Shown here in pieces: positions 9,363 to 49,988 of a stretch of 64,000 bases of DNA (the stretch's first letter is position 1; every line of letters begins with the position of its first letter). The stretch is from an uncultured Chloroflexia bacterium (GTDB taxonomy: Bacteria; Chloroflexota; Limnocylindria; QHBO01). The translations under genes and the position numbers were made by a program. The notes beneath the pieces are model-generated. The model was not told the origin of the DNA. It saw only the letters and a list, made by a program, of their open reading frames with translations, and ran no database searches. The stretch lies in assembly GCA_963750025.1 (NCBI GenBank), contig CAVVPF010000022.1, forward strand, positions 7,884-71,883, given 5' to 3'.

Positions 9363-9848
9363 ATGAGTGAGGCTGATCACCAGCGCTTCATGCGGATGGC
9401 CATCGCCATGGCCCGCAAGAGCGCCATCGAGGATCGGACCGGCAGTCCGTTCGGCTGCGTGATCGTCCGCGACGGAAAGGTGGTGGGGTCCGGCGTGAAC
9501 CAGGTGCTCGCCCGCCACGATCCGACCTGCCACGGCGAGATCGTGGCCATTCGCGACGCGTGCCAGCGGTTGGCCACCCACGACCTGAGCGGCTGCACCG
9601 TCTACACCAGCTGTGAGCCGTGCCCCATGTGCTACGCCGCCGCCTGGTGGGCCCGCGTCGAGGCGGTCTACTACGCCGCCGCCATCCAGGATGCCCTGGA
9701 CTACGGCGACTTCGACGACAAGCCGATCTACGACGCGATCGCCCTGGACGGCCCGGATCGCGCGGTGCCTGCCATCGAGATCCTCCGCGACGAGATGGTC
9801 GCGGTTTGGAAGGAGTTCCACGCCATCCCGGACCGGGTTCATTACTGA
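9363..9848 (+). CDS. Guanine/nucleoside deaminase (CDA fold, GuaD-like)
   Basis: Zn motifs 'CHGE' and 'CEPCPMC', plus the tail 'FDDKPIYDAI', similar to the B. subtilis GuaD-type guanine deaminase. Confidence 0.85.
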   Translation: MSEADHQRFMRMAIAMARKSAIEDRTGSPFGCVIVRDGKVVGSGVNQVLARHDPTCHGEIVAIRDACQRLATHDLSGCTVYTSCEPCPMCYAAAWWARVEAVYYAAAIQDALDYGDFDDKPIYDAIALDGPDRAVPAIEILRDEMVAVWKEFHAIPDRVHY

Positions 9849-11624: not shown

Positions 11625-11887
11625 CTATCTCCTTGCGATAGCGTCATCTCCATCACGGGTTGGAGCGTCCGAGCACGCCGGCTTCTGCCGGAGACGGCAG
11701 CGATGACCGCTTCGGCGGATCCGATCGGGTCGAACGCCCAGCCCTCCACGACCACCCCCAGCGATCGCTGGTCGCGGACGAGGGCTACGCTGGTCACACC
11801 CAGACGGGCGAGCGCCGAAAGCGCGTCCGAGCGAAGGCAGGCCTTCGTTCCGACCGGCATCAGCACCAGCAAGATCGCCATCGTCAC
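11621..11887 (-). CDS. Hypothetical small protein
   Basis: 88-aa ORF between the LAL regulator and the secreted-protein genes, on the same strand. Confidence 0.45.
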   Translation of the reverse strand: MTMAILLVLMPVGTKACLRSDALSALARLGVTSVALVRDQRSLGVVVEGWAFDPIGSAEAVIAAVSGRSRRARTLQPVMEMTLSQGDR

Positions 11888-11951
11888 ACCTCAACCGCAG
11901 GGGGTTCGCGGTGACGCTATGTGTGACGAGCTCTCCGGATCATCGGGGAAT

Positions 11952-14816
11952 TCATGTACGTTTCGTCCCGACCTCTGCCAGGCGCGCCGCGAGCTCGGTG
12001 CGATTCCGAACCTCGAGCTTGCGGAAGAGGTTGACGAGATGGCGCTCGACGGTTTTCGGGGAGACGAACAGAGTCGAGGCGACCTCGCGGTTCGTTGCGC
12101 CTGCGGCGACGAGGCGCGCCACTTCTTCCTCCCTCGCGGTGAGCGGCGCGCCGGCTGCGCCGCGACGCCAGGTGCGCACGCCCAGCAGGCGCAGGGACTG
12201 CTCGGCAAGGTCGCGGACCGTCTCCGCCCCGCGCTCGCGTGCCGCGACCGCGGCATGCTGGAGCACGACGACGGCTCGTTCGTCGCCGATGGCGACCAGG
12301 GCGCGCCCGAGGTCGAGCCGGATCCAGAGCGCCGCGAGCCGGTAGGGAGACGACTTGCCCGCGGCGACCGCCGCCTCGAGCGCGACGACACGCTCCTCGG
12401 GCTTGGCCGCCGCGAGCGCACCGGCGTGACCGTGCGCGAGCCGATCGAGGTCATCGAGCGGGAATTCGAGCCGATCCCTCCGTTCCACGGCCATGCGCGC
12501 GGCATTGTGCTCGCCGATGCGGCTCAACGCCTCAGCCGCCAGCAGCAGGAGCTCGCCGGTGCAACGGGGGCAACCGACGGAGGCCGCACATTCGTCGGCT
12601 GCCTCGAGCTGCGAGTGGACCGTCTCTGCCGCCTCCGTGCCGTGGAGTCGGGCCGCCCACACGGCGCGATCACCGTGCAACACGATCCGCTGGTGCTCAT
12701 TGGCCTCGTGCGCGATCTCTTGCTCCAGGAGCGTCAGCGCTTGTGCAACGTGGCCACGTTCAAGCCACACACTGGCAGCGACGCGCGCCACCCGGTGCCG
12801 AGCGCGCGGGACGTCGCCGACGCGCCGGGCGAGCTCGCTCGTCTCGCGGACGATCGCCTCAGCCTCTTCGAGCTCGCCGATCAGCGCGAGCGTCCGTCCC
12901 AGCCAGAAGCCCGCATCGACCGCAAGCCGTGGCAGCACCGCCCGTTGCGTATCGGCCCAGACACGCCGGAAGCGCGCCAAGGCCTGCCGCACTCGACCGT
13001 TCTGGCGCAGCGCCACGCCGAGGGCGAGCGCGGCTTCGAGGACCTCCTCGAGGCCGACGCCGCGGGCCGCTGTCTCGCGCTGCTCCGCCGTGCGCAGCAG
13101 CGCCTGAGGATCGCCCTGCTGCATCGCGGCTTCGTACTCGAGGCGCAGCGCATCCAGCAGGGCGCGCTGAAGCTTCGAATCGTGACGTCTTGGGCGAGCT
13201 CGCTTGCTCGCGAGCCGCCTTGCGACCGATGCCGCCTCGCGGGCAAGTGCGCGGCCCTCCGGCCCGCGCTGCTCGAGCCACAGGCAGATCGCGGCCTCAT
13301 GCGTCGTTTGCTCCAGGCTCAGCACCGCGTCATCGCGCAGAAGGTCCCGGCTTCGTGAGAGGAGCTCGCGTGCTTCGTCGGCCCTCCCGAGCGCATACGC
13401 CGCGCGGGATGCCTCCAGTGCGGCCGACGCCCGCGTTGCACGAGCTTCGGCTCGCTCTGCCACCAGCGACCACCGCGCCAATGCCTGCTTATGCTCCCCG
13501 AGCTCGTAGGAGAGCGCTGCCACGTTGGCCTGGAGAGCAACAGTTTCGGGCGCCAGCGGGTCAGCCTCGTCCGCCAGCACACCCAGCTCCTCGGCGCCGT
13601 CGGTCCCCAGGAGCCGGCGCTGGGGCGAGGTTGCGAGCCTCCCGGCGAGAGCCAGGACGGAGAGGCCGGCCGCCCGACGATGCTCCAGCGCAAGTCGCAG
13701 GAGTTGGAGATCGCCGCCTGCGTCACGCTCGAATCCTGCCGCGAGTCGACGATGGATGCGAAGGCGAACTTCCTCGGGAAGCTGTGCGGCGGCGGTGGCC
13801 CGGATCAGGTCGTGGGCTGGCTGCGCGGCGCCCCCGTGTATCTTGGCCAGTCCTCGCTCGACGAGCACGTCCAGGGCGGCCTCGACGCGTTCGGGTTGAC
13901 GGTCGAGCAGCTCGGCGGCCGCGGCGACCGAGATCGGACGTCCTGCCAGGGCGAGCGTTCCAAGCAGCGTGGCGGCGACTGGACCTGCCCCGCGCAGACG
14001 CCGCGTGAGAATCTGTTCCAGGCCGCGCCCGGCTTTGCCGTAGAGCACGAGCGCTTCGAGCCAGAAGGGGATGCCATCGGCCCGTCGCCACAGCGTGCCT
14101 GCGGCTTCTGCATCGAGCCCGGGATCGAGGGCCTGGGCCAGGGCCGTCCCGTCCTCCTGGTCCAGGGCCCCGAGATCGATGCGGTGCAGGCAAGCCTCCG
14201 GCATGCCATCGAATAGTTCCTCCCCGGGTCCGCCGGGCCGTGTCGCGGCCAGAATGGCGAGTCGCTGGTGCGACTCGGAGGCAGCACGCACCAGGTAGTG
14301 GCACAACGACAGCGAGAGATCGTCGACCCACTGCAGGTCATCGATGACGAGCAGTGCCGGCTCCACGGTGCGAAGCGCACGACGAGCAGCCTCGAAGATC
14401 CGAAGCGGCTCGAACGTGCCGGCGTCGGGTCGTGCCTCCGCGGCCGGCCCTTCAGCGACCGAGCCGAAGACCAGCGCATCCAGAGTCTCTCCGTGGCGCG
14501 GGATGGCAACCAACGCGCGGAGGAGCCCTGCCGCGGCGGCCAGCGGTACGCGGTGCTCGGACTCGAAGCCGACGACTGCGAACGATTGGATGCGCGGCGC
14601 CAGCCTGCGCGCCTCGGCGAGGAGCCGGCTCTTGCCGCAGCCGGGGACACCGGTAACCAGCGCGGTGGCCGGCCCAGCCGAAGTCGCGACGACCTCCGCC
14701 AGGGCTCGGAGCTCCATGGTTCTGCCGACGAAGGTGCTCACATCGAAGAGCCTACGCTCGCCAGCCGCACCCGGAAAGAGGCGGTCCGGACCGATCTGTG
14801 GTGGGGGAGCAGGCAA
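11952..14816 (-). CDS. Large ATP-binding LuxR-family (LAL) transcriptional regulator
   Basis: Walker A 'GVPGCGKS', a long helical repeat region, and a C-terminal LuxR HTH 'LTAREEEVARLVAAGATNREVASTLFVSPKTVERHLVNLFRKLEV'. Confidence 0.9.
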   Translation of the reverse strand: MPAPPPQIGPDRLFPGAAGERRLFDVSTFVGRTMELRALAEVVATSAGPATALVTGVPGCGKSRLLAEARRLAPRIQSFAVVGFESEHRVPLAAAAGLLRALVAIPRHGETLDALVFGSVAEGPAAEARPDAGTFEPLRIFEAARRALRTVEPALLVIDDLQWVDDLSLSLCHYLVRAASESHQRLAILAATRPGGPGEELFDGMPEACLHRIDLGALDQEDGTALAQALDPGLDAEAAGTLWRRADGIPFWLEALVLYGKAGRGLEQILTRRLRGAGPVAATLLGTLALAGRPISVAAAAELLDRQPERVEAALDVLVERGLAKIHGGAAQPAHDLIRATAAAQLPEEVRLRIHRRLAAGFERDAGGDLQLLRLALEHRRAAGLSVLALAGRLATSPQRRLLGTDGAEELGVLADEADPLAPETVALQANVAALSYELGEHKQALARWSLVAERAEARATRASAALEASRAAYALGRADEARELLSRSRDLLRDDAVLSLEQTTHEAAICLWLEQRGPEGRALAREAASVARRLASKRARPRRHDSKLQRALLDALRLEYEAAMQQGDPQALLRTAEQRETAARGVGLEEVLEAALALGVALRQNGRVRQALARFRRVWADTQRAVLPRLAVDAGFWLGRTLALIGELEEAEAIVRETSELARRVGDVPRARHRVARVAASVWLERGHVAQALTLLEQEIAHEANEHQRIVLHGDRAVWAARLHGTEAAETVHSQLEAADECAASVGCPRCTGELLLLAAEALSRIGEHNAARMAVERRDRLEFPLDDLDRLAHGHAGALAAAKPEERVVALEAAVAAGKSSPYRLAALWIRLDLGRALVAIGDERAVVVLQHAAVAARERGAETVRDLAEQSLRLLGVRTWRRGAAGAPLTAREEEVARLVAAGATNREVASTLFVSPKTVERHLVNLFRKLEVRNRTELAARLAEVGTKRT

Positions 14817-15362: not shown

Positions 15363-16451
15363 TCAGGCCCTTGTCGGCCAGGTCAGGGCGTCGCGGCGGC
15401 AGCGGGTCACGCACAAGCCGCAGCGCGTACAGCGCTCACCGTCCAGCGCCGTGCGGCCGTCCACGACGTGGATGGCACCGTACACGCAGGAGGTCTCGCA
15501 CACGCCGCAATCGTTGCAGGCCTCCAGGTCCAGCAGCGGGACCTCCGGCCTTCCAGCCGGCCAGCCCTGGGTCAGGGCTGCTCCCACCACCTCGCGGACC
15601 GATGCGTGGCCGTGCGCATCGAGCCAGGCATCTAGCTCTCTGGCGATCTTGCCGAAGACCGATGGCCCGCGCAGGATCGCCGCGGTGCAGACCTGCACGG
15701 CAGAGGCGCCCGCCATCAGGAACTCGACCACATCGGTCCCGCGCGTGATGCCACCTACGCCGATCACCGGGAGGTCGACCGCACGGGCGATGTCGCGCAC
15801 GCAGCGCACCGCCAGGGGCTTGAGCGCCGGGCCCGACAGCCAGCCATACCCGTTCTGGCCGCCCAGTCGCGGCATCCTGGTCTCGATGTCGAGCGCCAGT
15901 ACCGGGCCAAAGGAGTTGATGGCGGCGATGCCGTCCGCCCCGGCGTCCTGGGCGAGCCGCGCCGCGCCGGCCATGTCGTGGCCATGCGGGCTGACCTTGA
16001 CGAAGACCGGCACGTCGAGCGCCCGCTTGGCGGCGCGGACCGCGCCGACCATCGGTCCCGGATCCGCGCCGATGTAGTGCGTCGACAATTCGACCGCGTC
16101 GGCGAATGGCCTGACTTTGGGCGCCAGCTCCCCGATCTCCTCCGCGGTGTAGCCCAGGCTCACGATCAGCGGCAGCCCGGCCGTGCGGGCCAGGGCGTAC
16201 TCGTGCTCGAGCCACTGCTCGGGCGGCAGCTCGGACCACAGCTCGGTGTTGACCATGCCGTGCGGGATCTCGGCCATGTTCGGCTCCGGCGGCTGAGCGG
16301 CGCGCACGGAGATGGTCTTGGCCACCAGCGCTCCCGCCCCGCCCTTGGCACAGGCCAGCATGGCCGCCCCGTCGCGCACCGGCGGGCCAGCCGCGGTCAG
16401 GATCGGGTTGCGGAACCGAAGGCCGCACACCTCCACGCTCAGGTCGGCCAT
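15363..16451 (-). CDS. PreA-like dihydropyrimidine/dihydroorotate dehydrogenase-family flavoenzyme with a C-terminal 2x[4Fe-4S] ferredoxin domain
   Basis: The class-1 DHODH/DPD fold begins 'MADLSVEVCGLRFRNPILTAAGP'. The C-terminus carries 'CNDCGVCETSC' and 'CTRCGLCVTRC'. Its start overlaps the ssnA stop (TGATG). Confidence 0.85.
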   Translation of the reverse strand: MADLSVEVCGLRFRNPILTAAGPPVRDGAAMLACAKGGAGALVAKTISVRAAQPPEPNMAEIPHGMVNTELWSELPPEQWLEHEYALARTAGLPLIVSLGYTAEEIGELAPKVRPFADAVELSTHYIGADPGPMVGAVRAAKRALDVPVFVKVSPHGHDMAGAARLAQDAGADGIAAINSFGPVLALDIETRMPRLGGQNGYGWLSGPALKPLAVRCVRDIARAVDLPVIGVGGITRGTDVVEFLMAGASAVQVCTAAILRGPSVFGKIARELDAWLDAHGHASVREVVGAALTQGWPAGRPEVPLLDLEACNDCGVCETSCVYGAIHVVDGRTALDGERCTRCGLCVTRCRRDALTWPTRA

Positions 16452-17815
16452 CACTCTCCTCCTGTGGTCGCCAGCAGCCGGGTGGGGCTGAACGGGTGCG
16501 GACCGATCCGTTCCAGCCTCCCCCACAGGCGGCGGGCCTCCTCGCGCGCCTCGAGCAACAGCTCCGCATCGTCGAGGCGCGTCAGCCTCCGGTCGCGTAC
16601 CACGACCTCGCCGCCGACGAGCACGTCACGCACCGATGCCGCCGACAGGCCGAAGATCCAGTGCGAGGCCAGCGAGGAGTCCGTCATCTGTGTCGGAGCC
16701 GCGTAGTCGAGGACCACCAGGTCCGCCGGCGCGCCCACCTCGATCCGCCCCAGGCCCGGCTCGCCGAACAGGCGCCCGGCGAGGGCGCTGCCCTCGGCCA
16801 GCGGGGCCAGCGGCCAGCCGTCGGGCGTGTCGAGCCCATCCTCTCGCAGGCGGAGGTACGCCACGCGGGACTCCTCGAACATGTCGGCGCCGATCCCATC
16901 GGTCCCGAGCGCCAGACGTGGCCCCAGCCACGCTAGCGGCGCGCGCCCCACCGCGTTGTTCATGTTCGAGCGCGGGTTGTGGGCGACCGTGACGCCCGAT
17001 GCCCGGAGAACCTCAGCCTCGGCCGGGGTCAGGTGAACCGCGTGCGCCACCAGTGAGGCATCGGTCAGTGCGCCGGCGTTGGCCAGCCGATGCGTGGCCC
17101 GATGGCCGAAGCGTGCCTCGGCATCGGCTTGATCGGCCTGGTCCTCCGCCAGGTGGACGTGGATGCCGGCCCGTGACTCGTGTGCGAGCGCGACGCAGGC
17201 GGCCAGCGTCTCGTCCGACAGGGTGAACGACGCGTGCGCACCAACCATGCCGCGGGCCAGCGGCCAGCGGCCCTCGGCGACGCGCCGCAGGAAGCCGCGG
17301 TTCTCCTCGACGCCCGCGCCGGCGCGCTCCAGGCCATCGCGGTCTGTCACCTCGTAGCACAGGACGGACCGGATGCCGACCTCCTCGAAGGCCTCGGCCA
17401 GCACGTCCAGCGAGCCGGCGATCGCGTTCGGCGAGGCGTGGTGGTCGACCAGCGTCGTGGTGCCGGCCAACAGCGCCTCGCGCGCAGCGACCAGGCCCGA
17501 GGCGCGGATTGAGGCGAGGTCGAGGGCGCGATCGAGGCGCCACCACACTCGCTGCAGGATCTCGAGGAACGAGGTCGGCGGCGGCAGGTTGTAGGGCATA
17601 CCGCGTGCCAGGGCAGAGTAGGCGTGTGTGTGAGCGCACACGTTGCCGGGCACGACCAGGCACCCGTTGCACTCAATGCGCTGTGCGCTGCCCGCCTGGT
17701 CGAGCCCCGAGCCGACGGCCACCACGTGGCCGCCTGACACGTGGACGTCGCCACGGACCACCGTGGGTGGGTGCAGCGAGCGGACGACGGTCGCCCCCGC
17801 GAGCAGCAGGTTCAT
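16451..17815 (-). CDS. ssnA: SsnA-family amidohydrolase
   Basis: Colinear similarity to E. coli SsnA, for example 'CAHTHAYSALARG', 'LWWRLDRALD', 'VDHHASP', 'HNPRSNMNNAVG' and 'LGTDGIGADMFEE'. Confidence 0.9.
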   Translation of the reverse strand: MNLLLAGATVVRSLHPPTVVRGDVHVSGGHVVAVGSGLDQAGSAQRIECNGCLVVPGNVCAHTHAYSALARGMPYNLPPPTSFLEILQRVWWRLDRALDLASIRASGLVAAREALLAGTTTLVDHHASPNAIAGSLDVLAEAFEEVGIRSVLCYEVTDRDGLERAGAGVEENRGFLRRVAEGRWPLARGMVGAHASFTLSDETLAACVALAHESRAGIHVHLAEDQADQADAEARFGHRATHRLANAGALTDASLVAHAVHLTPAEAEVLRASGVTVAHNPRSNMNNAVGRAPLAWLGPRLALGTDGIGADMFEESRVAYLRLREDGLDTPDGWPLAPLAEGSALAGRLFGEPGLGRIEVGAPADLVVLDYAAPTQMTDSSLASHWIFGLSAASVRDVLVGGEVVVRDRRLTRLDDAELLLEAREEARRLWGRLERIGPHPFSPTRLLATTGGE

Positions 17816-20457
17816 CGTGGCCCCCCCACCCGGCGCGGCTCCCCGCGCCCGCGCCGCACGACGCGTGGGACCGCCGCCCGCGCGGCCGCGGAGTCGATCA
17901 TCGGCAGGCGCCTGCGGCGAATGCCATCGAAGGCGTGGAGTGCGCCCGCCACGGCGGCTGCCGTCGGCACCAGCACGGCCTCACCGGCGCCCTTGGCGCC
18001 ATACGGCCCTTCGGCCTGCGGCTCCTCGATCAGGATGCACTCGACCGGGGGCATGCCGGCGGCCGGGATGATGTTCAGGGACTTGAGCGTATCGGTCACC
18101 GGTACGCCGCGGTCGACCACGAACTCCTCGGACAGCGCGTAGCCGAGGCCCATGTGGACGCCGCCCTCGACCTGGCCCTCCAGTGCCAGCGGGTTGATCG
18201 CGCGGCCCACGTCGTGGGCGGCCACGACCCTGGCCAGGCGCCCCTCGTCGTCAAGAATGACGACCTGGGTAGCCCAGCCGTAGGCCAGGTGGGTCATCGG
18301 TTCGGGGTCGCCTTCGCGCAGCTCGGTCGTCCAGTCGACCACGAACTCGCCGGGGAACTCCCGCCCAGCGAGCTCCTCCAGCCCCTGGTCGCCCCGCGCG
18401 AGATTCAGGCGCCGGGCAGCGTCGAGCACGGCCTGGCCACCCAGCACGGTGGCGCGGGATGCGGTCGTCTCGCCTGTGTCGAGCTCGTGCTCGGTGTCGA
18501 CCACGACCCGGATGCGGTCCACGGGGATCTGCAGCTCCTCGGCGGCGATCTGGGCCAGGGCGGTATGGATCCCCTGCCCCATCTCGGTCCAGGAGTGGAA
18601 CAGCGTCAGCGTGCCGTCTGCCTCCGGGCGCAGGATGGCGCGACCTCGTTCGGCCATGCCGTTCCCGATGCCGGTGTTCTTCGCACCGCAGGCGATTCCC
18701 GCGTAACGGGCGGACCGATAGGCGTCGCGTACCGCCAGCAGCGTCCGCCGCAGGCCTACACCGGAGGTCAGCCGCTGACCGGTTCCGAACCGATCGCCGA
18801 CCGCCATCGCGTTCCGCCAGCGGATCTCCCAGCCGTCGATACCGACGCGCTCGGCGAGGACGTCGAGCAGCCCCTCCAGCGCGAAGGTGACCTGCGGCAC
18901 GCCGAATCCGCGCATCGCCCCGGCAGGTGGGTTGTTGGTGTAGACCGCGCGCGCTTCCACGTCGACGTTCGGGACCCGGTATGCACCGCAGGCGTGGCCC
19001 GCCGCGCGCTCGAGGACCTTGGCCCCCACGCTGGCGTAAGCGCCGGTGTCACCGATGATCCGGGCGCGAACGGCCACCACGTGGCCCTCGGCATCGCAGC
19101 CCACCGTGTAGGTGAGGTTCATCGGGTGGCGCTTGGGGTGGAGGCGAAGGCTTTCCCGTCGCGACAGGGCCAGCAGCACCGGCCGCGCGCTGAGGAAGGC
19201 GAGGAGCGATGCCTGCGCCTGGACCGAGAGGTCCTCCTTACCGCCGAATGCGCCACCGGTGGCGACCTGCGAGACCCGGATCGATGCCTCGGGGAGTGCC
19301 AGGAACGCGGCGAGCTGGCGCCGGTCCTCCCAGGCGCCCTGCCCCTGTGAGAAGACGCGGAGTCGCGGGGCGTCGCCGTCGCCCGACGCCGCCTCCGGCA
19401 CGGCCAGCACCGCCTCCGGCTCCAGGAAGGCGTGCTCGATGCGCTGAGTGTAGAAGGTGTCCGATGCGACGTGTGCCGCGTTTGCCAGCGCGGCCTCCAC
19501 GTCGCCGCGCCGAACGACTGAGGTGGACAGCAGGTTGCCACCCGGGTGGATGCGCGGCGCATCGGGCTCGAGCGCCTCCTCGGGGTCGACCAGGGGGGTG
19601 AGGACCTCGTACTCGACTCGGACCAGCTCGGCGGCCTCGCGTGCCGCGGAGCGCGTCTCGGCGGCGACGGCCGCCAGCACGTCGCCTACGTAGCGGGTCT
19701 CCTCCCCCTCGGCCACGAACGGCGGCCAGTCGCGCTCGATGAGGCCACAGAATCGCTCGCCGGGCACGTCGCGCCAGGTCACCACGCGCACCACGCCCGG
19801 ATACGCCTCGGCGGTCGCGGTGTCGATGCGCAGCACGGTGGCCCGAGGATGATCCGAGAAGCGCAGGGCGCCGTGCACCATCCCGGGGACGTGCATGTCG
19901 GCCACGAACGGGTGCTCGCCGAGAACCTGCTCCCGCCCGGCGTACTTCGGGACGCGACGGCCCACCGCCCCCGGTCTCCCATCGGTTTCGGCCGGCCGTA
20001 CCCCGCGCCGGCGTGCGGCCACGTCCTCGATGGCGTCGATCACCTTGACGTAGCCAGTGCAGCGGCAGACGTTGCCGGCCAGCGCCCGGGCGATCTCGTC
20101 GCGGGACGGTTCCAGCGTGCGGGCGAGAAGTGCCTCGGCCTTCATGACGATCCCCGGCGAGCAGAAGCCGCACTGCGACGCGCCGCCTCGCACGAACGCA
20201 TCGGCCCAGTCGGCCCGGCGTTCAGCGGACAGCCCTTCCAGGGTGCGCACCTCGCGATCCTGGAAGCGCGAAGCCGGCTGGGCACAGGAGACCACCGCGC
20301 GCCCGTCGACGATGACGGTGCAGGCGCCGCAGGAGCCTTCCGGCGCGCAGCCGTCCTTCATGGAGCTGAGGCCGCACTGCTCACGGAGCAGCTGGAGCAG
20401 GCTCTCGCCCGGTCGCTCCTCGACCGTGACCCGCTCCTCGTTAATCGTCAGCTGCAT
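17812..20457 (-). CDS. Fused [2Fe-2S] + molybdopterin-binding hydroxylase (XdhD-like, xanthine dehydrogenase family)
   Basis: N-terminal '[13 protein letters not shown]' and 'QCGFCSPG...CRCTGY', then a large Mo-cofactor domain ('GGAFGGKED'). There is no FAD-binding domain or subunit nearby. ATGA overlap with ssnA. Confidence 0.9.
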
Positions 20458-20603
20458 TCGGTCGCCTCAGCCCGCCGCGGGCGGGCCATGTGGCCCTATG
20501 CCCTGCGGCCGTTCCCTCACGACTCTATGGGGGCGGCACGGAACGGGGGTGTGCCGTTCGTCCTGAGGTACAGGGCCGTCGGTCCCCATTCTGGAGAGGA
20601 TGC

Positions 20604-23505
<2,902 letters not shown>

Positions 23506-23509
<4 letters not shown>

Positions 23510-24459
23510 GGAGCTTCCTTGGTCGCGACATCCTGACGTTGAAGGACTTCAGCCGCGAGGACTTCTTCCGCGTCTTCGAGGTCGCGAACGACCTGCGACC
23601 GCACGCTCGCGATCGGCGCAACGGCGACCTGCTCAAGAACAAGACGCTGCTGACGGCGTTCTACCAGCCAAGCACCCGCACGCGCCTCTCGACCGAGGCC
23701 GCCATGCACCGCCTCGGCGGAGGCGTGCTCGGCTTCAGCGACGCGAAGATGACCCGGGCCGGCGACTTCTACCAGGAGTCTCTCAAGGACACCTTCCGCA
23801 TGCTCGAGTCATACGCGGACGTCATCGCCATCCGGCACTTCCAGGAGGGCGCGCCCGCGGAGGCGGCGAAGTGGTCATCGGTCCCGATCATCAACTGTGG
23901 TGACGGCTGGGGGCAGCACCCGACCCAGGTGCTGACCGACCTCTACACCATCCTGCTCGAGCGAGGGACACTGGACGGGCTGACGTACCTGCTCGTCGGC
24001 GACATGCGGATGCGGACGATGCACTCCATCCTGCACGCCCTGTCGCAGTTCGACGCCGAGGCGATCGTCGTCTCGCCGCCGGACATGTCGCTCCGTCCCG
24101 AGTTCAAGGCGGAGCTCGACGAGATGAGCGTGGCCTATCGCGAGGCGAAGGCGGTCGCCGACGTCATCGGTGAGGCGGACATCATCTACATGGAGCCGGT
24201 CGTGCAGGCCGACTACACGCAGTCACGCGTGGAGCGCAGCGCCGAGGTGGGGCTCACGCCGGTCGCCTACCAGGTCACCGCGGAGCTGATGCGCACGAAG
24301 GCGAAGCGGAGCTCGATCATCCTGCACTCCCTGCCACGCATGGACGAGCTGACCGCGGACGTCGACGAGACGCGCCACCAGCGCTACTGGGTCGAGGCCT
24401 CGAACGGCGTCGTGCTGCGCATGGCGCTGCTGGCCCTCGTCCTGGGCGCAGCAGAGTAG
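23506..24459 (+). CDS. Aspartate-carbamoyltransferase-like carbamoyltransferase with a non-canonical second-substrate site
   Basis: 'STRTR', 'HPTQ' and 'HSLPR' are present. The PyrB 'RxQxER' segment is replaced by 'YMEPVVQADY'. Confidence 0.85.
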
Positions 24460-24471
24460 GAGGACGGATCG

Positions 24472-25449
24472 ATGCAGACCGGGCTTCGTGGCCGCGACCT
24501 GATCAGCCTCTCCGAGTGGACGACCGAGGAGATCGACACCATCCTGGAGGTGGCGTCTCAGCTGAAGCGCGAGCGCGCGCTGGGGATCCCGCATCCCCTG
24601 CTGCGTGACCGCGTGCTGGCGATGCTCTTTTTCTTCAGCTCCACGCGCACCCGCGCCAGCTTCGAGGCCGGCATGGCGCAGCTGGGCGGGCACGCCCAGT
24701 TCATCGAGAGCCGCACGACCCAGATCGCCCACGGCGACACGGCCAGGGAGATCGGCGAGATTCTGGGCCGCTACAACGACGGGATCGCCATCCGGCACGT
24801 CGACTGGGGCGAGGGCAACCGCTACATCCGCGAGGTGGCCGAGGCGTCGCGGGTGCCGGTCCTGAACATGCAGTGCGACCTCTACCACCCCCACCAGGTC
24901 CTGGCCGACCTGATGACGATCCGCGAGAAGATCGGCAACCCACGCGGCCGGACGATCACCGTCTCGTGGGCGTACGCCGCCTCCTACCAGAAGCCGATCA
25001 GCGTGCCGCAGGACCTCATCCTGCTCGCCACCCGCTACGGCATGAACGTGCGGCTGGTCCACCCACCGGAGTTCAAGCTGATGCCCGAGATCGTCGATGC
25101 CGCGGTCGAGAACGCGCGCCGCTCGGGGGGCTCGCTCGAGCTGATGGACGACTTCGACGCGGGATTCCGCGGCTCGCACATCGTGTACGCCAAGTCCTGG
25201 GGCGCCCTGCTGACGGCCAAGGATGAGGCCGATGGCGCCGCCATCGCGAAGCGCTACACCGACTGGATCACCGATGAGCGGCGCATCTCCCTGGCCGCCG
25301 AAGACGCGATGTACATGCACCCGCTGCCGGCCGACCGGAACATCGAGGTGACCGATGCGGTGATCGATGGCCCGCACTCGGTCGTCTACGACCAGGCGGA
25401 GAACCGGCTGCACGTCCAGAAGGCCGTGATGGCCCTGACGATGGGCTGA
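24472..25449 (+). CDS. ygeW: YgeW-like carbamoyltransferase
   Basis: 'SSTRTR', 'TQIAHGDT', 'MQCDLYHPHQVLADL', 'WAYAASYQKPISVPQ' and 'YMHPLPAD' parallel E. coli YgeW rather than ArgF or PyrB. Confidence 0.85.
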   Translation: MQTGLRGRDLISLSEWTTEEIDTILEVASQLKRERALGIPHPLLRDRVLAMLFFFSSTRTRASFEAGMAQLGGHAQFIESRTTQIAHGDTAREIGEILGRYNDGIAIRHVDWGEGNRYIREVAEASRVPVLNMQCDLYHPHQVLADLMTIREKIGNPRGRTITVSWAYAASYQKPISVPQDLILLATRYGMNVRLVHPPEFKLMPEIVDAAVENARRSGGSLELMDDFDAGFRGSHIVYAKSWGALLTAKDEADGAAIAKRYTDWITDERRISLAAEDAMYMHPLPADRNIEVTDAVIDGPHSVVYDQAENRLHVQKAVMALTMG

Positions 25450-25460
25450 GGAGACGACCG

Positions 25461-26408
25461 ATGGCCAAGTCCGTGCTGGTGGTTGCCATTGGCGGCAACT
25501 CGCTGATCAAGGATCCACAGCACATGAGCGTGCCGGATCAGTATCGCGCGCTCGGCGAGACGAGCGGGCACATCGCCCGCATCATCAAGGACGGCTGGCA
25601 GGTGGCCATCGGCCACGGCAACGGCCCGCAGGTGGGCTTCATCCTGCGCCGTTCCGAGCTCGCGGCCCACGAGCTGCACGAGGTGCCGCTCGACGTGTGC
25701 GACGCCGACACCCAGGGCGCTATAGGCTATGAGCTGCAGCAGAACCTGGGGCACGACTTCCGACGGATGCGGGTCGACCGCCAGGCGGTCACCGTCGTGA
25801 CGCAGGTCGAGGTCGATCCCGACGACCCCGCGTTCCAGCACCCGAGCAAGCCGATCGGCTCGTTCATGGACGAGGCCCAGGCGCGGCAGCGGGCCGAGCG
25901 TGATGGGTGGGTCGTGCGCGAGGACGCGGGGCGCGGCTGGCGGAGGGTGGTCGCCTCTCCGCGGCCGTTGCGGATCGTCGAGGAGCGGGCTGTCAAAGCG
26001 CTGCTGCGGGACGACTTCGTGGTGATCACCGTGGGCGGCGGCGGCATCCCGGTCGTCACCGATGAGCACGGGGACCTGCGCGGAGTCGCCGCCGTGATCG
26101 ACAAGGACTTTGCCTCGGCGCTGCTGGCGGTCACCATCCGCGCCGACGTGTTCATGATCACGACCGCGATCGACCGCGTGGCGCTCGACTGGGGACGCCC
26201 GGAGCAGCGCTGGGTCGGCCGCCTAACGCTCGCCGAGGCGAAGGTCTACCTGGCCGAGGGCACCCACTTCGCGTCGGGGAGCATGGCGCCGAAGATCGAG
26301 GCCTGTATCGAGTTCCTCGAGCACGGCGGCGGCGAGGCGGTCATCACCAGCCCGGAGAACATGGAGCGAGCGTTGGCCGGCGAGGCGGGAACGCGGATCG
26401 TCGCCTGA
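25461..26408 (+). CDS. arcC: Carbamate kinase
   Basis: Contains 'VVAIGGNSL...HGNGPQVG...', 'GGGGIPV' and 'DKDFASALLA', the typical carbamate kinase (ArcC/YqeA) layout. Confidence 0.9.
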   Translation: MAKSVLVVAIGGNSLIKDPQHMSVPDQYRALGETSGHIARIIKDGWQVAIGHGNGPQVGFILRRSELAAHELHEVPLDVCDADTQGAIGYELQQNLGHDFRRMRVDRQAVTVVTQVEVDPDDPAFQHPSKPIGSFMDEAQARQRAERDGWVVREDAGRGWRRVVASPRPLRIVEERAVKALLRDDFVVITVGGGGIPVVTDEHGDLRGVAAVIDKDFASALLAVTIRADVFMITTAIDRVALDWGRPEQRWVGRLTLAEAKVYLAEGTHFASGSMAPKIEACIEFLEHGGGEAVITSPENMERALAGEAGTRIVA

Positions 26409-43414: not shown

Positions 43415-45313
43415 TCAGGCGCCCGGCGCCGCCGGCGCGGGAGCCGGCTCGGCAGGCAAGGCCCGGTAGCGGCCCCAGGCCTTCCACGCGTCGAAGGCGA
43501 TGAACAGCGCCGCGACGACCAACAGGAGCGAGATCGCAATCATCGCCCAGGCGCCGATAATGGAGATCGGCGCCGAGCCCTCGCGGATCACGATCGTGAC
43601 GTAGAGGTTGTACGCCGTCACCAGGCTCGCCGCCACGGTGGTCACGTACATGAACAGCATGGGGATCCCGGCATAGGCCGGGTTGCGCCGCGTCGAGGCC
43701 AGCCACAGCGTCACCAGCAGCAAGCTGAGCGCTGCCAGCAGCTGGTTCGAGGCGCCGAAGAGCTGCCACAGGTAGACCCACGTGCCGGACAGCACCAGGG
43801 CCAGCACCAGGACCGACGAGATGATCGTCGCGATGTGCTGATTCTTGAAGCCGACCCACGTGTCGCCCAGCCACTCGCCCAGCGTCACGCGCATGACGCG
43901 AAAGACGAGCTGCACCACGGTCAGCACGATCACAACGAACGCGCCGAAGCCGAGTGCCGTCCCGAAGGCCAGCGGCACGAGGCCGAAGGTCGCCACGTTC
44001 AGCAGGTTGCCGACCCCCGCGGCGAACGCCCCTGCTCCAGCCCCGCCGGCGATCGCCACCGCCGTCAGCGACAGGAGGCCCAGCGTGTTCTCGCTGAACA
44101 TGCCGCCCGCGCCGACCGGCAGCGCATCGGTCTCGTACTGAAGCTGGCGAGCGGTGCCGACCGAGCCGATGAGCGCGTGCCAGCCGGAGATGGCGCCGCA
44201 GGCGATGGTGACGAAGAGCATGGGCCACAGCGTCTGGATGGCGCCCGTGGCGACCTTGGGGGCGAAGTCGGTGAACGCCTCGAGCTTGAAGGTGGCCACC
44301 TCCGGTTGGAAGAACGGTGCCAGGATGGCGCCCACCGCCGAGAGGCCAATGGCCAGGGCGGTGATCCAGAAGCCGATGTAGTTGACCGGCTGCGCGAAGC
44401 GCCAGATCGCCAGGTTGGTGCCCAGGTAGCTGAAGGCCAGCAGGAAGAGGCACCAGAACACGAAGCTGGGCAGGACGTTGATCTCGCCCGTGGCGGCGTT
44501 GAAGACCGCCGTTGACGGTCGCTGCTTGGTCTCGGGGTTGACCGCCGGAACGCGCGGATCGGCGTTCGTCGGGTCGACCACGGTGTAGATGGGAGTTCCA
44601 TCGCCGTTCAGCGTGGCATTGATGCCGCGCACGACACCGCTCACCGGCCCGGTCTCCCAGGTCGGTGGCTGGCCCTGCTGGAAGGTCACGCCCAGCGGAC
44701 CGAGCACCATGGCCAGCAGCGTACTGACCACGATGAGGAGGGTGACCTGGATCAGGTCAACCTTTCGGCGGTAGATGAGGTAGCCACCGAGCATCCCCAT
44801 CGCGGCCAGCACCAGGATCCCGAAGGGGACGTCGGGTCGGGCGTCCAGCACGGCCGCCATGATCCCGACGAAGGCGCCGCCGATTAGCAACAGGTAGAAG
44901 AAGATAAACACGAACAGGATCGTCCGCGTGCGCGGGCTGATGAGCCGGTAGGAGATGGCCGAGAGCGAGTTCCCATCGTTGCGCACGCTCATCATGATCG
45001 CGCTGTAGTCGCTCGCCCAGCCGATGAAGGTGACGCCGATCATCAGCCAGAGGATCGATGGCAGCCAGCCCCACAGGTTGGCGGCGGTGATGACGCCGAC
45101 GATGGGGCCGGCGGCGGCGATCGACTTGAAGTGGTAGCCGTACAGGATGAAGCGGCTGGTCGGCATGAAGTCGGCCCCGTCCATGTACATGGTGGCCGGC
45201 GTCGCGCGCTTCGGGTCCGACTGAATGACGACCCTATCGATGCGGCGGGCGTAAAAGTTGTAGGCGAGGTAGATGACCACCGCGCCGATGACCACGACCC
45301 ATAGTGAACTCAT
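43415..45313 (-). CDS. cstA: Carbon starvation protein A (CstA-family peptide/pyruvate transporter)
   Basis: 'MSSLWVVVIGAVVIYLAYNFYARRI...', 'YGYHFKSIAAAGPIVG' and a polytopic topology are typical of CstA. Confidence 0.9.
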   Translation of the reverse strand: MSSLWVVVIGAVVIYLAYNFYARRIDRVVIQSDPKRATPATMYMDGADFMPTSRFILYGYHFKSIAAAGPIVGVITAANLWGWLPSILWLMIGVTFIGWASDYSAIMMSVRNDGNSLSAISYRLISPRTRTILFVFIFFYLLLIGGAFVGIMAAVLDARPDVPFGILVLAAMGMLGGYLIYRRKVDLIQVTLLIVVSTLLAMVLGPLGVTFQQGQPPTWETGPVSGVVRGINATLNGDGTPIYTVVDPTNADPRVPAVNPETKQRPSTAVFNAATGEINVLPSFVFWCLFLLAFSYLGTNLAIWRFAQPVNYIGFWITALAIGLSAVGAILAPFFQPEVATFKLEAFTDFAPKVATGAIQTLWPMLFVTIACGAISGWHALIGSVGTARQLQYETDALPVGAGGMFSENTLGLLSLTAVAIAGGAGAGAFAAGVGNLLNVATFGLVPLAFGTALGFGAFVVIVLTVVQLVFRVMRVTLGEWLGDTWVGFKNQHIATIISSVLVLALVLSGTWVYLWQLFGASNQLLAALSLLLVTLWLASTRRNPAYAGIPMLFMYVTTVAASLVTAYNLYVTIVIREGSAPISIIGAWAMIAISLLLVVAALFIAFDAWKAWGRYRALPAEPAPAPAAPGA

Positions 45314-45420
45314 GCAACCCTCCCGTTCAAAGGAGCGCGCACAAATGGCGGGGGCAGTCACCCGGATGGTGAGCCTGCCGCGCCGTCTAGCGCGCTGGCG
45401 TCCCCATATGGATCTTCCCT

Positions 45421-45813
45421 TTAGGCCACTCCTCTCCCTCCCGAGGACGACACGTAGCGGTCGATGACGCGATCGACGGCCTCAAAATCGGTACCGATCG
45501 CCGTCTCGCGCCCAGCCACGATCGTTGCCGGGTAGCGGCGCACGCGGTGGCGCAGCGACTTCCAGACCCCCTCGATCGAGGCGGCGTCGATGACGGAGAC
45601 GGCGAGCCGGTCGGGGTGGCGTTCGAGCAGGCGATGGACCCAGTCGGACACCTCCTGGTATTCATGGGCCAGGTTGTCCGGCAGCGAGCTGGAGGCGGCC
45701 TCGCGTTGCACGGGCTGGCCGATGCCGATGCCCTCGAACACCACCTCGCAGTGCTGGCAGTGGCGGAAGACCGTCGGCGCGTAGGTGATGATCTGTACGC
45801 TCACGTGCTGCAT
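45421..45813 (-). CDS. Hypothetical CxxC protein, possibly thioredoxin-fold
   Basis: 'VQIITYAPTVFRHCQHCEVVF' and the C-terminal 'RYPATIVAG' suggest a thioredoxin-like fold. This is a weak call. Confidence 0.45.
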   Translation of the reverse strand: MQHVSVQIITYAPTVFRHCQHCEVVFEGIGIGQPVQREAASSSLPDNLAHEYQEVSDWVHRLLERHPDRLAVSVIDAASIEGVWKSLRHRVRRYPATIVAGRETAIGTDFEAVDRVIDRYVSSSGGRGVA

Positions 45814-45904
45814 CGAACTTCCCATAAGGACATCAGATCCATCGGTTCCGCGCAGGCCGCGAAGACAGGGTACACCCACCTGACAAGGGAGCTGGGGCTG
45901 CGGC

Positions 45905-46690
45905 TCAGATCCCGCGCAGCAGCCCGCCGTCGACCGGGATGAGGGCGCTCGTCACGTACGAGGCGGCATCCGAGCACAGGTAGGTAACGAGGCTCGCCAG
46001 CTCGTCCGGCCGTCCATAGCGTCCCGCGGGGATTGCCGCCTGTGCCTCGGCCTGCACCTCCTCCAGGCTGCGGCCCTCGCGCTCCGCTCGTTCCCGATCG
46101 AGCGAATCGATGCGGGCGGTATGGACCCGGCCGGTGAGCACCCCGTTGATCGTCACGCCGTCGGCGGCCACGGCCACCGCAGCGGTCTTGAGCCAGCCCG
46201 CCAAGGCGGAGCGGCCGGCGGTGGAGTAGACGAGGCTGGGGATCGGCTCGCGGACCACCGACGACATGAGCGCCACCACACGCCCATGGCGCTGCGCACG
46301 CATAGCCGGCAGCAGGGCGGTGGCGATGGCGATGGGCGTGATCGCCAGCAGCTGGAAGGCTTGGCGCCAGCCATCCGGATCGGTGGCGAGTGGGTCGACC
46401 GTGGGCGGGCCTCCCGCGTTCAGGACGCAGATGTCGATCGTGCCCAGGCGCTGGGCGGCCTCGACCACGCGGTCGGCGGCAGCCGGGTCGGCCGCGTCTG
46501 CGGCCAGCGTCTCGACCTCCGCGCCATGAGCCTGCCGCAGCCGCTGCGCGGTGGCGTTCAGTTGGTCTTCGCTGCGCGCCCAGAGCAAGAGGCGGCAGCC
46601 CTCAGCGGCGAGCGCTTCGGCGACGGCCGCGCCCAGGCCAGCTGAGGCGCCTCCGATCGCGGCGGTCCGTCCGGTGAGCCCGAGCTCCAT
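45905..46690 (-). CDS. Short-chain dehydrogenase/reductase (SDR)
   Basis: 'GRTAAIGGASAGLGAA' (TGxxxGxG-like), 'NAGG' and 'YSTAGRSALAG' (YxxxK-like, with Arg in place of Lys). Confidence 0.85.
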   Translation of the reverse strand: MELGLTGRTAAIGGASAGLGAAVAEALAAEGCRLLLWARSEDQLNATAQRLRQAHGAEVETLAADAADPAAADRVVEAAQRLGTIDICVLNAGGPPTVDPLATDPDGWRQAFQLLAITPIAIATALLPAMRAQRHGRVVALMSSVVREPIPSLVYSTAGRSALAGWLKTAAVAVAADGVTINGVLTGRVHTARIDSLDRERAEREGRSLEEVQAEAQAAIPAGRYGRPDELASLVTYLCSDAASYVTSALIPVDGGLLRGI

Positions 46691-47159
46691 GCGCCGATTA
46701 TATGACGGCTGGCGCGAGACCCCGATGCTAGCCGGTCCCGGGAACGACATGCGGTGCGCGTCTTCGCCAGCCGCGAACAGCACCGCCTCGAGCAGCAGAC
46801 CGGCCGTCCAGGCCGAGTGTGCCCATCGCCGACTGGTGGCCGACTGGCAGCCGGAACGGGCGCGGGCGCCGCAACTGGGGGCGCGCAAGCAGCGCGGCAG
46901 GATCTCCCCAACCTCCTGCGCTTCGGCTCAGCGATTCGCCCTCACCCACCTTCAGGATGCAACGCGCTGAGATAGAGACACACTCTCTGCGGATCGGCGG
47001 GCTCGAGCCGAAGATCAGCAAGCATTCGACGCTAGCACTGGCATCGGTCTTCAACTGATGTCCGCGCAGTTCACCCTCAATGAATCGGTCCATGCGCGGG
47101 ACGCCACTTTCAACTCGAGATAATTTCGCCACTCGCCGCCTGGCACCGACACAGGACGA

Positions 47160-48284: not shown

Positions 48285-48334
48285 CGGTCTCTCCTTTCGG
48301 TCACCGCTGGTGCTAGCGCGAGCGGCGCTGCCGG

Positions 48335-49969: not shown

Positions 49970-49988
49970 CGAGTGACCTCCTCTCTGC

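Follow-up and report, generated by a model that had tools for sequence, protein, structure and literature searches.

The gene cluster described here lies at positions 15363-26408 of a 64-kb stretch of DNA (64,000 nucleotides, called the window below) from an uncultured Chloroflexia bacterium (assembly GCA_963750025.1, contig CAVVPF010000022.1). The closest described systems are the urate degradation clusters of E. coli and Clostridium, whose canonical pathway was reconstituted in 2025 (PMC12507026; bioRxiv 10.1101/2025.04.24.650524). According to both studies, urate is reduced to 2,8-dioxopurine ("yanthine") by XdhD, named XdhAC or DOPDH in Clostridium. The product is dearomatised by YgfK, and in C. 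difficile by the PF01180-type protein UacX, which takes the place of YgfK; putative reductases dependent on coenzyme F420 have been described as a further alternative (PMC12507026). When SsnA then opens the ring, ureidomethyl-hydantoin is the main product and 5-ureidodihydrouracil a minor one, and HyuA turns these into 2,3-diureidopropionate (PMC12507026; bioRxiv 10.1101/2025.04.24.650524). YgeW phosphorolyses one of the two ureido groups and YqeA makes ATP from the carbamoyl phosphate (bioRxiv 10.1101/2025.04.24.650524). The other ureido group is hydrolysed by YgeY, and YgeX converts 2,3-diaminopropionate to pyruvate and ammonia (PMC12507026; bioRxiv 10.1101/2025.04.24.650524). A preliminary description of the window had called several steps of this gene set unassigned and its intermediates unknown, a statement that the 2025 reconstitution has overtaken (PMC12507026; bioRxiv 10.1101/2025.04.24.650524).

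The eight genes of the cluster very probably encode a variant of this reductive purine/urate pathway. We give a probability of about 0.7 to the reading that they form a self-contained two-operon module, in which urate or other purines would be degraded reductively through 2,8-dioxopurine, with the lower half proposed below. Hidden Markov models (HMMs), likeness to the E. coli ygeV-ygfT region and conserved clustering all agree with the preliminary description, which had recognized a ygeW/ssnA/xdhD-type purine cluster with two carbamoyltransferases and two fold-type-II pyridoxal 5'-phosphate (PLP) enzymes, and a logic of reduction, ring opening, carbamoyl transfer and ATP formation via carbamate kinase. 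Functionally the module is within the 2,8-dioxopurine pathway, and three of the features that define this pathway, HyuA, YgeY and YgeX, are absent, with uncharacterised enzymes in the cluster instead. The new part is the lower half; the canonical pathway has been known since 2025.

Gene arrangement and conservation of the module

The G + C content of the window is ~70%, which makes lists of open reading frames (ORFs) noisy, and genes were chosen by third-position G + C content and HMM matches. The cluster consists of two divergent, translationally coupled operons with a 146-bp gap between them:

15363-16451, minus strand: PreA/PydA-like (UacX-type) flavin mononucleotide (FMN)/Fe-S reductase, 362 aa; PF01180 and two C-terminal [4Fe-4S] motifs
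16451-17815, minus strand: SsnA-type amidohydrolase; near the cutoff of NF005540, 39% identical to E. coli SsnA
17812-20457, minus strand: fused [2Fe-2S]/Mo hydroxylase (XDH), 881 aa, with no flavin adenine dinucleotide (FAD) domain or subunit; Pfam and TIGR03311
20458-20603: divergent intergenic region between XDH and PALP1, 146 bp, candidate promoter/operator
20604-22103, plus strand: PALP1, CysK/CBS-like PLP enzyme, 499 aa; PF00291
22100-23509, plus strand: PALP2, ThrC-like PLP enzyme, 469 aa; PF00291, 121 bits
23506-24459, plus strand: CT1, carbamoyltransferase resembling aspartate transcarbamoylase (ATCase), 317 aa; OTCace_N/OTCace
24472-25449, plus strand: CT2, YgeW-like carbamoyltransferase, 325 aa; OTCace_N/OTCace
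25461-26408, plus strand: carbamate kinase (CK) of YqeA/ArcC type; TIGR00746

All eight genes and the two coupled operons of the preliminary description were found again at the same positions, and three starts were corrected relative to the longest ORFs. PALP1 starts at the ATG at 20604, behind GGAGAGG, and not at the GTG at 20490, giving 499 aa as in its homologues. CT1 starts at the ATG at 23506, and the reductase at the ATG at 16451, giving 362 aa, the length called in relatives. ATGA overlaps were read from the sequence at the XDH/SsnA (4 nt), PALP1/PALP2 and PALP2/CT1 junctions. The SsnA/reductase junction is a TGATG overlap, with GGAGGAG ahead of the reductase, and the spacers before CT2 and CK are 12 and 11 nt long, with GGAGG/GGAG Shine-Dalgarno sequences.

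When the proteins of the E. coli K-12 ygeV-ygfT region and SelD were searched by tblastn against the window, only XDH, SsnA, CT2 (as YgeW) and CK were matched. HyuA, YgeX, YgeY, YgfK, YgfM, YqeB, YqeC, MocA and SelD were not found in the 64 kb, in line with the absences listed in the preliminary description (HyuA, YgeY, YgfK/YgfM, YgeX, selD, yqeB, yqeC). The only match to HyuA in the window was a 64-residue stretch inside ssnA. A urate permease was also absent from the window.

The module is conserved across phyla. We scanned a collection holding one genome per species with an alignment of PALP1 homologues, and relatives of PALP1 were encoded in at least 572 stretches (species genomes), mostly from Chloroflexota, Actinomycetota and Acidobacteriota. 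Eighty loci were fetched. By record title, ~36 were from Actinomycetota, ~20 from Chloroflexota, ~10 from Acidobacteriota, and the remainder from Eisenbacteria, Planctomycetota, Dormibacterota, Proteobacteria or unclassified; a separate look-up added one Armatimonadota locus. To annotate the neighbourhoods, we ran tblastn with the proteins of the window and of E. coli. The 42 loci whose flanks reach at least 8 kb on either side, drawn from several phyla, are called "full loci" below.

Among the full loci, PALP2 was present in 40, XDH in 38, SsnA in 35, CT1 in 33, CT2 in 24 and CK in 23. The complete gene set of the window type, with the reductase type free to vary, was found in 16, from several phyla. 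HyuA was encoded in four full loci, YgeY in three and YgeX in one. The closest relatives carry the identical eight-gene block between entirely different flanking genes, pointing to a portable module. Together with the recurrence across phyla, this indicates that the arrangement is not due to chance, and the gene neighbourhood proposed for comparison in the preliminary description is indeed conserved. The closest homologues of PALP1, PALP2 and CT1 (90-99% identity) came from metagenomes and metagenome-assembled genomes (MAGs) labelled Candidatus Limnocylindria, Chloroflexota. Public assemblies contained no exact match to the XDH of the window, and the relatives were reached by homologue searches.

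The reductase slot was filled in the full loci by a UacX type (7), a YgfK-like protein (7) or an F420-dependent LLM oxidoreductase (17), and in a few more by a 682-aa DHO_dh/Fe-S form. Three or four non-homologous reductases thus occupy the same place beside SsnA, depending on the lineage (L003, L009, L013, L015-L077), and the reductase types are interchangeable in the module. Recurrent neighbours in the related loci were adenine, adenosine, guanine and 8-oxoguanine deaminases, PucR and NCS1 permeases, and many loci carried a second, three-subunit XDH with a CoxM/YgfM-like FAD subunit. This company points toward purine catabolism. In two Acidimicrobiales loci an 8-oxoguanine deaminase (NF006055, 539 bits against a cutoff of 532) divergently adjoins PALP1 (L075, 8556-9893, minus strand; L076, 2284-3579, minus strand). 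Both loci have no PALP2, and the position of the deaminase suggests that salvage of oxidised guanine is tied to the pathway.

The intergenic region between XDH and PALP1 holds a palindrome, GGCCATGTGGCC, at 20484-20495, and a second box, TGTGCCGTTCGTCC, at 20550-20563. In an intergenic alignment of 20 loci, both boxes, which are candidate operator sites, were kept among the Chloroflexota but not among the actinobacterial loci. The region had no sigma-70 consensus match and no Rfam match, and scans of the cluster for Rfam families, tRNAs, promoters and terminators gave nothing relevant.

Predicted enzymes of the upper and lower halves

XDH has the Pfam domains Fer2, Fer2_2, Ald_Xan_dh_C and MoCoBD_1/2, and passes TIGR03311 (Se_dep_XDH) with 954.5 bits against a cutoff of 830.45. 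Its identity is 26% to E. coli XdhD and 30% to E. coli XdhA. It adjoins SsnA in 34 of the full loci. We predict that it is a urate/2,8-dioxopurine oxidoreductase, with the role of DOPDH or XdhD/XdhAC, the regiochemistry being taken from the genomic context.

The SsnA of the window scored just below both cutoffs for its family (NF005540, 440.9 against 444 bits; TIGR03314, 424.8 against 455.5), with the next-best family at 174 bits, and it is 39% identical to E. coli SsnA from end to end (residues 2-439). Its predicted function is the hydrolytic opening of the reduced 2,8-dioxopurine ring. The reductase matched PF01180 (135 bits) and Fer4 families, and remained below the curated cutoffs for PyrD (TIGR01037, 203 against 270) and PreA (NF006183, 170.5 against 335). 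A dearomatising reductase is required by the pathway, in the form of YgfK (IPR017701), UacX (PF01180 plus Fe-S) or an F420 enzyme; the window has one of the UacX type, predicted to act on 2,8-dioxopurine. The PreA-like reductase named in the preliminary description is this protein, and corresponds to the UacX alternative to YgfK (PMC12507026).

From the lower half, CT2 aligns with E. coli YgeW from end to end (34% identity) and shares the YgeW-type motifs NxQCDxxHPxQ, SWAxAxSYxKPxSVP and KSWG. The ornithine-binding DxxxSMG of ornithine transcarbamoylase (OTC) is absent and replaced by KSWG, as in YgeW; the YgeW insertions are absent too. CT2 stayed below every NCBIfam cutoff (AOTC, 256 against 288; OTC, 255 against 306; TIGR00658, 249.7 against 280.85; YgeW NF005538, 191.5 against 453). 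The earlier label "YgeW-like" therefore holds for the motifs and does not extend to the YgeW model. CT2 is predicted to phosphorolyse a ureido group of 2,3-diureidopropionate other than the one assigned to CT1 below, the role of YgeW. CK passes TIGR00746 (371.5 against 358.25) and NF009007 (382 against 266), is 47% identical to E. coli YqeA, and is predicted to convert carbamoyl phosphate and ADP to ATP, CO2 and NH3.

CT1 and E. coli PyrB share 40% identity, and CT1 scored 242 bits against the ATCase of P. abyssi. With respect to the curated ATCase models, it passes the older TIGR00670 (257.6 against 236.95) and is below NF002032 (222.9 against 263). The carbamoyl-phosphate site is kept (STRTR, S52-R56; R105; H134/Q137 of HPTQ; L267-P268), and so is the binder of the alpha-carboxylate, R167. 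These residues were conserved in all except 1-2 of 46 aligned sequences, the exceptions being gaps in truncated sequences. The residues K84 and R229 of ATCase bind the beta-carboxylate of aspartate, and both are lost in CT1. In the 80s loop, K83-K84-G85 has become D-(F)Y-Q, with S80R, K83D, K84Y and G85Q invariant in 44 orthologues. The segment T228-R229-(V/I)-Q is replaced by EPVVQ(A/P)DY, T228-R229 becoming E-P with an 8-residue insertion, and R229 is lost in all 44. The ATCases of P. abyssi, Arabidopsis and E. coli, unlike CT1, all keep KGE and TR[IV]Q. The acidic or neutral residues at the positions of K84 and R229 suggest a fit for an ammonium or ureido side chain, that is, for a derivative of diaminopropionate.

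The distribution of CT1 agrees with such a role. The 33 full loci with CT1 and the three with YgeY do not overlap, all three YgeY loci being without CT1, and L028 has, in the place of CT1 beside CT2, a true YgeY (473 bits; cutoff 321). Because of the altered aspartate pocket, this mutual exclusion and the swap in L028, we consider it about an even chance that CT1 is a phosphorolytic replacement of YgeY, which would convert 3-amino-2-ureidopropanoate and phosphate to diaminopropionate and carbamoyl phosphate. Every named CT1 orthologue listed carries the name aspartate carbamoyltransferase (catalytic subunit) in JGI/NCBI. A search with CT1 gave 7988 clusters at 90% identity (E <= 1e-40), a set that probably includes true ATCases. 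PALP1 and PALP2 are named cysteine synthase and threonine synthase in the databases, which, together with CT1, looks like a systematic mis-annotation.

PALP1 retains the CysK motifs PSTGN, LNQF, SGSAGT and HNIQGIG, and Lys112, and scored only 72.3 bits on the cysK model, against a cutoff of 350.95. It has ~90 additional N-terminal and ~100 additional C-terminal residues, helical, beyond the ~300-aa single-domain CysK. The best folds in the Protein Data Bank (PDB) for its AlphaFold2 (AF2) model, with a predicted local distance difference test score (pLDDT) of 81, were cystathionine beta-synthase (CBS) and O-acetylserine sulfhydrylase (OASS). The members are 61-99% identical across phyla and form a discrete family, with only 381 clusters at 50% identity (E <= 1e-30) among 1.84 billion representatives. 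A 665-aa homologue that looked like a fusion (P0036) was set aside, being a partial tandem duplication of PALP1 and most likely an assembly artefact.

More distant homologues of PALP1 (55% identity) are encoded on plasmids of two cultured Alphaproteobacteria, Rhizobium sp. NXC24 (L086, 11962-13461) and Bosea vaviloviae (L087, 12070-13404), where they stand alone, with no PALP2, XDH or SsnA. A gene for a TauE/SafE sulfite exporter is adjacent to the homologue in Rhizobium and ~7 kb away in Bosea, and the neighbourhood in Bosea also has a RidA gene and a thiamine diphosphate enzyme. Amino-acid or TRAP transporters and M20 peptidases were seen near the plasmid homologues as well. The presence of TauE, and of RidA in Bosea, suggests that the PALP1 family consists of lyases that release aminoacrylate by beta-elimination from beta-substituted alanines; the plasmid homologues may act on cysteate or another such alanine. 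For PALP1 itself, the odds are roughly balanced that it is the terminal lyase, which would release pyruvate and NH3 from 2,3-diaminopropionate (or from another beta-substituted alanine). Neither PALP1 nor PALP2 matched the models for diaminopropionate ammonia-lyase at E <= 0.001.

PALP2 adjoins PALP1 in 40 of the full loci, and no homologue of it was found in the plasmid collection. Its best ThrC model gave 75.7 bits (cutoff 303). R160, N154 and S155 bind phosphate in the ThrC of T. thermophilus; in PALP2, Arg160 is replaced by Ala263, and N154/S155 by G/N. Invariant are Lys153, the ASCGN loop with Cys183, and a Cys-rich N-terminal Cys3-His motif (C24/C27/C41/H52). The AF2 model (pLDDT 84) had CapA2 (9k3c) and ThrC as best PDB folds. 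Cys183 in the A-S-C-G-N loop stands at what we take to be the position of Ser84, the second catalytic base of fold-type-II serine racemase, which hints at racemase or epimerase chemistry. Three Acidimicrobiales loci (L064, L075, L076) keep CT1 and PALP1 without PALP2, and CT2 also in L075 and L076, so that PALP1 seems to be the essential lyase and PALP2 accessory. PALP2 may assist as a racemase or act as a second lyase on the C3 amino acid, although any specific role given to it is doubtful.

Put together, the proposed pathway would run as follows. XDH, working without a FAD subunit, would reduce urate to 2,8-dioxopurine, and the UacX-type FMN/[4Fe-4S] reductase would dearomatise the latter to the dihydro form. 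SsnA would open the first ring to ureidomethyl-hydantoin or 5-ureidodihydrouracil. For the second ring opening, to 2,3-diureidopropionate, the window encodes no enzyme; an unlinked hydantoinase or SsnA itself may act here. CT2 would then use phosphate to give mono-ureido-diaminopropionate and carbamoyl phosphate, and CT1 would release diaminopropionate and a second carbamoyl phosphate. From the two carbamoyl phosphates, CK could make two ATP per urate instead of one. PALP1 would deaminate 2,3-diaminopropionate to pyruvate and two NH3. PALP2 would be auxiliary, most likely for stereochemistry (as a racemase or in a D-specific step) or for a second beta-substituted substrate. The steps of XDH, the reductase, SsnA and the kinase are assigned by homology to characterised enzymes, and we infer the substrates of XDH, CT1, CT2, PALP1 and PALP2 and the yield of two ATP from sequence and gene context.

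Alternative readings and gene surroundings

Several observations weigh against the proposed pathway. The window has no hydantoinase or dihydropyrimidinase and HyuA is found in only four of the full loci, leaving a gap at the second ring opening. The gut enzymes depend on selD, yqeB and yqeC, none of which is in the window; nearly all related loci lack them too (yqeB-like matches in 3 of 82). The regiochemistry of XDH is not readable from its sequence: Glu606 of XdhD has been proposed to orient urate, and as a marker it was uninformative, being located in an insertion specific to XdhD. CT1 exceeds the TIGR00670 cutoff for ATCase, and in seven loci it occurs with no CT2 or CK within 10 kb. One locus, L055, has a genuine diaminopropionate ammonia-lyase (NF006058, 501 bits) alongside PALP1/PALP2, so the roles are no one-for-one swap, and the idea of PALP1/2 as a simple substitute for YgeX is weakened by this coexistence. 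The 2025 studies also disagree on which ureido group is removed by YgeW (commentary PMC12990295).

For the hydantoinase step, we looked for another conserved hydrolase by clustering 413 unassigned ORFs of the related loci. No candidate was broadly conserved, and none was in the window. The clusters contained purine deaminases, FAD subunits, transporters, a UacY-like D-aminoacylase (L064), a carbon-nitrogen hydrolase (L078) and a DUF6282 protein (L083). In L078, PALP1 is translationally coupled to the carbon-nitrogen hydrolase, whose family includes carbamoylases. The Thermoanaerobaculia loci L023 and L042 carry a set that is canonical in the other genes (HyuA, YgeY, a YgeW-like protein, YgfK, SsnA and XDH) together with PALP1/2, and no YgeX, which counts in favour of PALP1 as the terminal lyase.

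A lower pathway that needs no hydantoinase has also been considered, and is in our view quite unlikely. A carbamoyltransferase would take the exocyclic ureido group first (e.g., from 5-ureidodihydrouracil to 5-aminodihydrouracil), a PLP enzyme would open the ring by alpha,beta-elimination, and the second carbamoyltransferase would cleave the acyl-urea, the extra PLP enzyme replacing HyuA. The lack of HyuA in the window and in 38 of the full loci, with an extra PALP enzyme and an extra carbamoyltransferase present, speaks for such a route, as does L031, where PALP1/PALP2 have a PreA-like reductase and an NCS1 permease as neighbours, but no XDH or SsnA. However, CT1 keeps R167 and PALP1/PALP2 keep their S/T-G-N carboxylate loops, pointing toward open-chain amino acids as substrates. 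PALP1/PALP2 and HyuA coexist in seven loci (L020, L023, L036, L044, L055, L063, L068), and PALP2 as a replacement for HyuA was rejected on this ground. The route would also leave an amide without an amidase to remove it, and we know of no precedent for a ring-opening elimination of a cyclic ureide in fold-type-II enzymes, which counts against it too. The module could instead degrade another N-heterocycle (xanthine, hypoxanthine, an 8-oxoguanine-derived or a pyrimidine-like compound), with a conventional Mo hydroxylase and a lower half for another ureido-amino acid. We hold this to be unlikely. TIGR03311 bears the name "xanthine dehydrogenase" and XDH shares somewhat more identity with E. coli XdhA (30%) than with XdhD (26%), but the XdhD of C. 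difficile is equally distant from that of E. coli (25.6%). The altered pocket of CT1 and the two PLP enzymes leave room for other substrates, and some PALP1/2 loci lack XDH and SsnA. On the other side, the triad of SsnA, UacX/YgfK and XDH is the signature of the 2,8-dioxopurine route (PMC12507026), and the second three-subunit XDH in many related loci would be able to supply urate.

It is very improbable that the plus-strand operon is anabolic, making or carbamoylating diaminopropionate for albizziin-type ureido amino acids, with the CysK-like enzyme as diaminopropionate synthase. CysK-like enzymes such as SbnA do make diaminopropionate precursors (the SbnA model gave 35 bits) and carbamoyltransferases normally run in the biosynthetic direction, but CK is tightly coupled to the operon, and the homologous YgeW/YqeA pair of E. 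coli works catabolically. The complete set with XDH, SsnA and the reductase recurs in 16 of the full loci, purine deaminases are found in further related loci, and scans of the window showed no nonribosomal peptide synthetase (NRPS) or other tailoring genes. That these are ordinary housekeeping genes which happen to be neighbours (PyrB, ArgF, ArcC, PyrD, ThrC, CysK) is hardly credible and already contradicted. It has on its side the pass of CT1 on TIGR00670 and the public names aspartate carbamoyltransferase, cysteine synthase and threonine synthase. The other cutoffs failed (cysK, 72 against 351; ThrC, 76 against 303; OTC, 250 against 281; PyrD, 203 against 270), and key residues are lost in CT1 (K84, R229), CT2 (DxxxSMG) and PALP2 (the phosphate-binding Arg). 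The block is also conserved across phyla and portable between flanks. The preliminary description had set its reading against ordinary ArgF, PyrB, PyrD, ThrC or CysK in unconserved neighbourhoods; the clustering is kept, and CT1, CT2, PALP1, PALP2 and the reductase fell below the ArgF, ThrC, CysK, PyrD and PreA cutoffs, apart from the pass of CT1 on the older ATCase model.

The PLP pair itself was also seen in another setting. At 4414-15582 of L083, PALP1-PALP2 are accompanied by an XDH-type enzyme of three subunits, a Zn-dependent alcohol dehydrogenase, a DUF6282 protein and PucR, and with no SsnA; an Asp/Glu/hydantoin-racemase-like (Amdase) protein is encoded there as well. This locus may represent a different heterocycle pathway using the same PLP pair.

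Directly downstream of the minus-strand operon, one further gene was annotated:

11952-14816, minus strand: LAL-type LuxR regulator, 954 aa (AAA_16, TPR and GerE; Pfam)

The signal from third-position G + C content was ambiguous between the strands in this region, and plus-strand ORFs at 11703-13358 and 13491-14216 had no Pfam match. The protein is a possible regulator of the cluster. Its gene is not kept beside the block: at this place the closest relatives encode a HisKA_3 kinase and a LuxR response regulator. The 161-aa product of 9363-9848 (plus strand), taken for a GuaD-like deaminase in the preliminary description, has a CMP/dCMP-deaminase fold, with TadA as best NCBIfam match (78 bits against a cutoff of 150), and its identity as a guanine deaminase is unsupported. 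In the rest of the window, we found no purine, molybdenum-cofactor or selenium genes. It encodes an MMPL transporter, ATP-binding cassette (ABC) transporters, CstA, a 2-oxoacid dehydrogenase E1/E2 set, a lipoate ligase, a universal stress protein (USP) and a tRNA-Arg. The genes at 43415-51869 (minus strand) are for the CstA transporter, a short-chain dehydrogenase/reductase (SDR), 2-oxoacid dehydrogenase E2, E1-beta and E1-alpha, and lipoate-protein ligase. This set resembles a dehydrogenase cluster of the pyruvate/acetoin type and has no evident tie to the purine module.

Comparison with known systems

In 2025, reductive urate degradation was presented as characteristic of host-associated anaerobes; a related module is widespread in uncultured environmental phyla, with PALP1 relatives in at least 572 species-level genomes. 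If the proposed pathway is true, the "anaerobic gut" 2,8-dioxopurine pathway would be a major route of purine mineralisation in soil and freshwater Chloroflexota, Actinomycetota and Acidobacteriota, and its wide occurrence bears on the recycling of purine nitrogen in soils and waters. That the lower half is a new solution, dispensing with HyuA, YgeY and YgeX, yielding two ATP per urate and serving as a major purine mineralisation route in these phyla, is put forward tentatively, at somewhat less than even odds. In such a solution, CT1 may be a diaminopropionate N-alpha-carbamoyltransferase that arose by charge reversal of the aspartate pocket, working with CT2 as a compact relative of YgeW and with a CysK-like/ThrC-like PLP pair not characterised before. 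The driving reductant may be ferredoxin, NAD(P)H or F420 in different lineages. The predicted new activities are an ATCase-derived carbamoyltransferase that phosphorolyses ureido groups, a family of beta-substituted-alanine lyases and a ThrC-like partner, with a doubled ATP yield. The pocket of CT1 could help to settle which ureido group goes first in the canonical pathway. Thousands of entries for such proteins, now named aspartate carbamoyltransferase, cysteine synthase or threonine synthase, would distort metabolic reconstructions of lineages known from MAGs only.

Our literature search found no description of this lower-half variant. Li et al. reported SsnA in Chloroflexota and Actinomycetota, with a putative F420-dependent, luciferase-like reductase used in Chloroflexota (PMC12507026). 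Neighbours were scored there by Pfam family only (PF00185 as "YgeW", PF00291 as "YgeX"), so that CT1 and CT2, or PALP1/PALP2 and YgeX, were not separated, and the absence of HyuA and YgeY was not noted (PMC12507026). The Chloroflexota variant of that study belongs to the same environmental lineage and SsnA clade as the window, which uses UacX and not the F420 enzyme.

The E. coli cluster comprises xdhD-ygfM, ygfK, ssnA, hyuA, ygeW, ygeY, ygeX and yqeA. In the window, as in the E. coli and Clostridium clusters, a Mo hydroxylase stands beside a dearomatising flavin/Fe-S reductase and an SsnA-type amidohydrolase, and a carbamate kinase that would serve substrate-level phosphorylation comes after a YgeW-like carbamoyltransferase. 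Terminal fold-type-II PLP enzyme(s) and the arrangement in compact catabolic operons are common to them as well. It differs from them in having no HyuA, YgeY, YgeX, YgfM, YqeB/YqeC or urate permease, and in the addition of an ATCase-derived second carbamoyltransferase and two PLP enzymes unrelated to YgeX. Its reductase is of the Clostridium type (UacX) and not YgfK as in E. coli. The hosts differ too: the window type is found in environmental Chloroflexota, Actinomycetota and Acidobacteriota, and the canonical type in gut Bacillota and Enterobacteria.

The variant of C. difficile has XdhD without YgfM, UacX for YgfK, and the D-aminoacylase UacY for YgeW/YqeA. The window resembles it in the FAD-less fused Fe-S/Mo enzyme and in the UacX-type reductase of PF01180 with [4Fe-4S] clusters, a combination implying an electron donor of the ferredoxin type in both. 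C. difficile removes both ureido groups hydrolytically, gaining no ATP, whereas the cluster of the window appears to phosphorolyse both. With PyrB, CT1 shares the fold and length; it has no pyrI, pyrC or carAB context and is coupled instead to CT2, CK and the PLP enzymes. Like the arginine deiminase pathway (ArcB and ArcC), the proposed lower half would phosphorolyse a ureido group to carbamoyl phosphate and then form ATP via carbamate kinase. In contrast to that pathway, its substrates would be purine-derived ureido derivatives of diaminopropionate and not citrulline, and two carbamoyltransferases would act in series.

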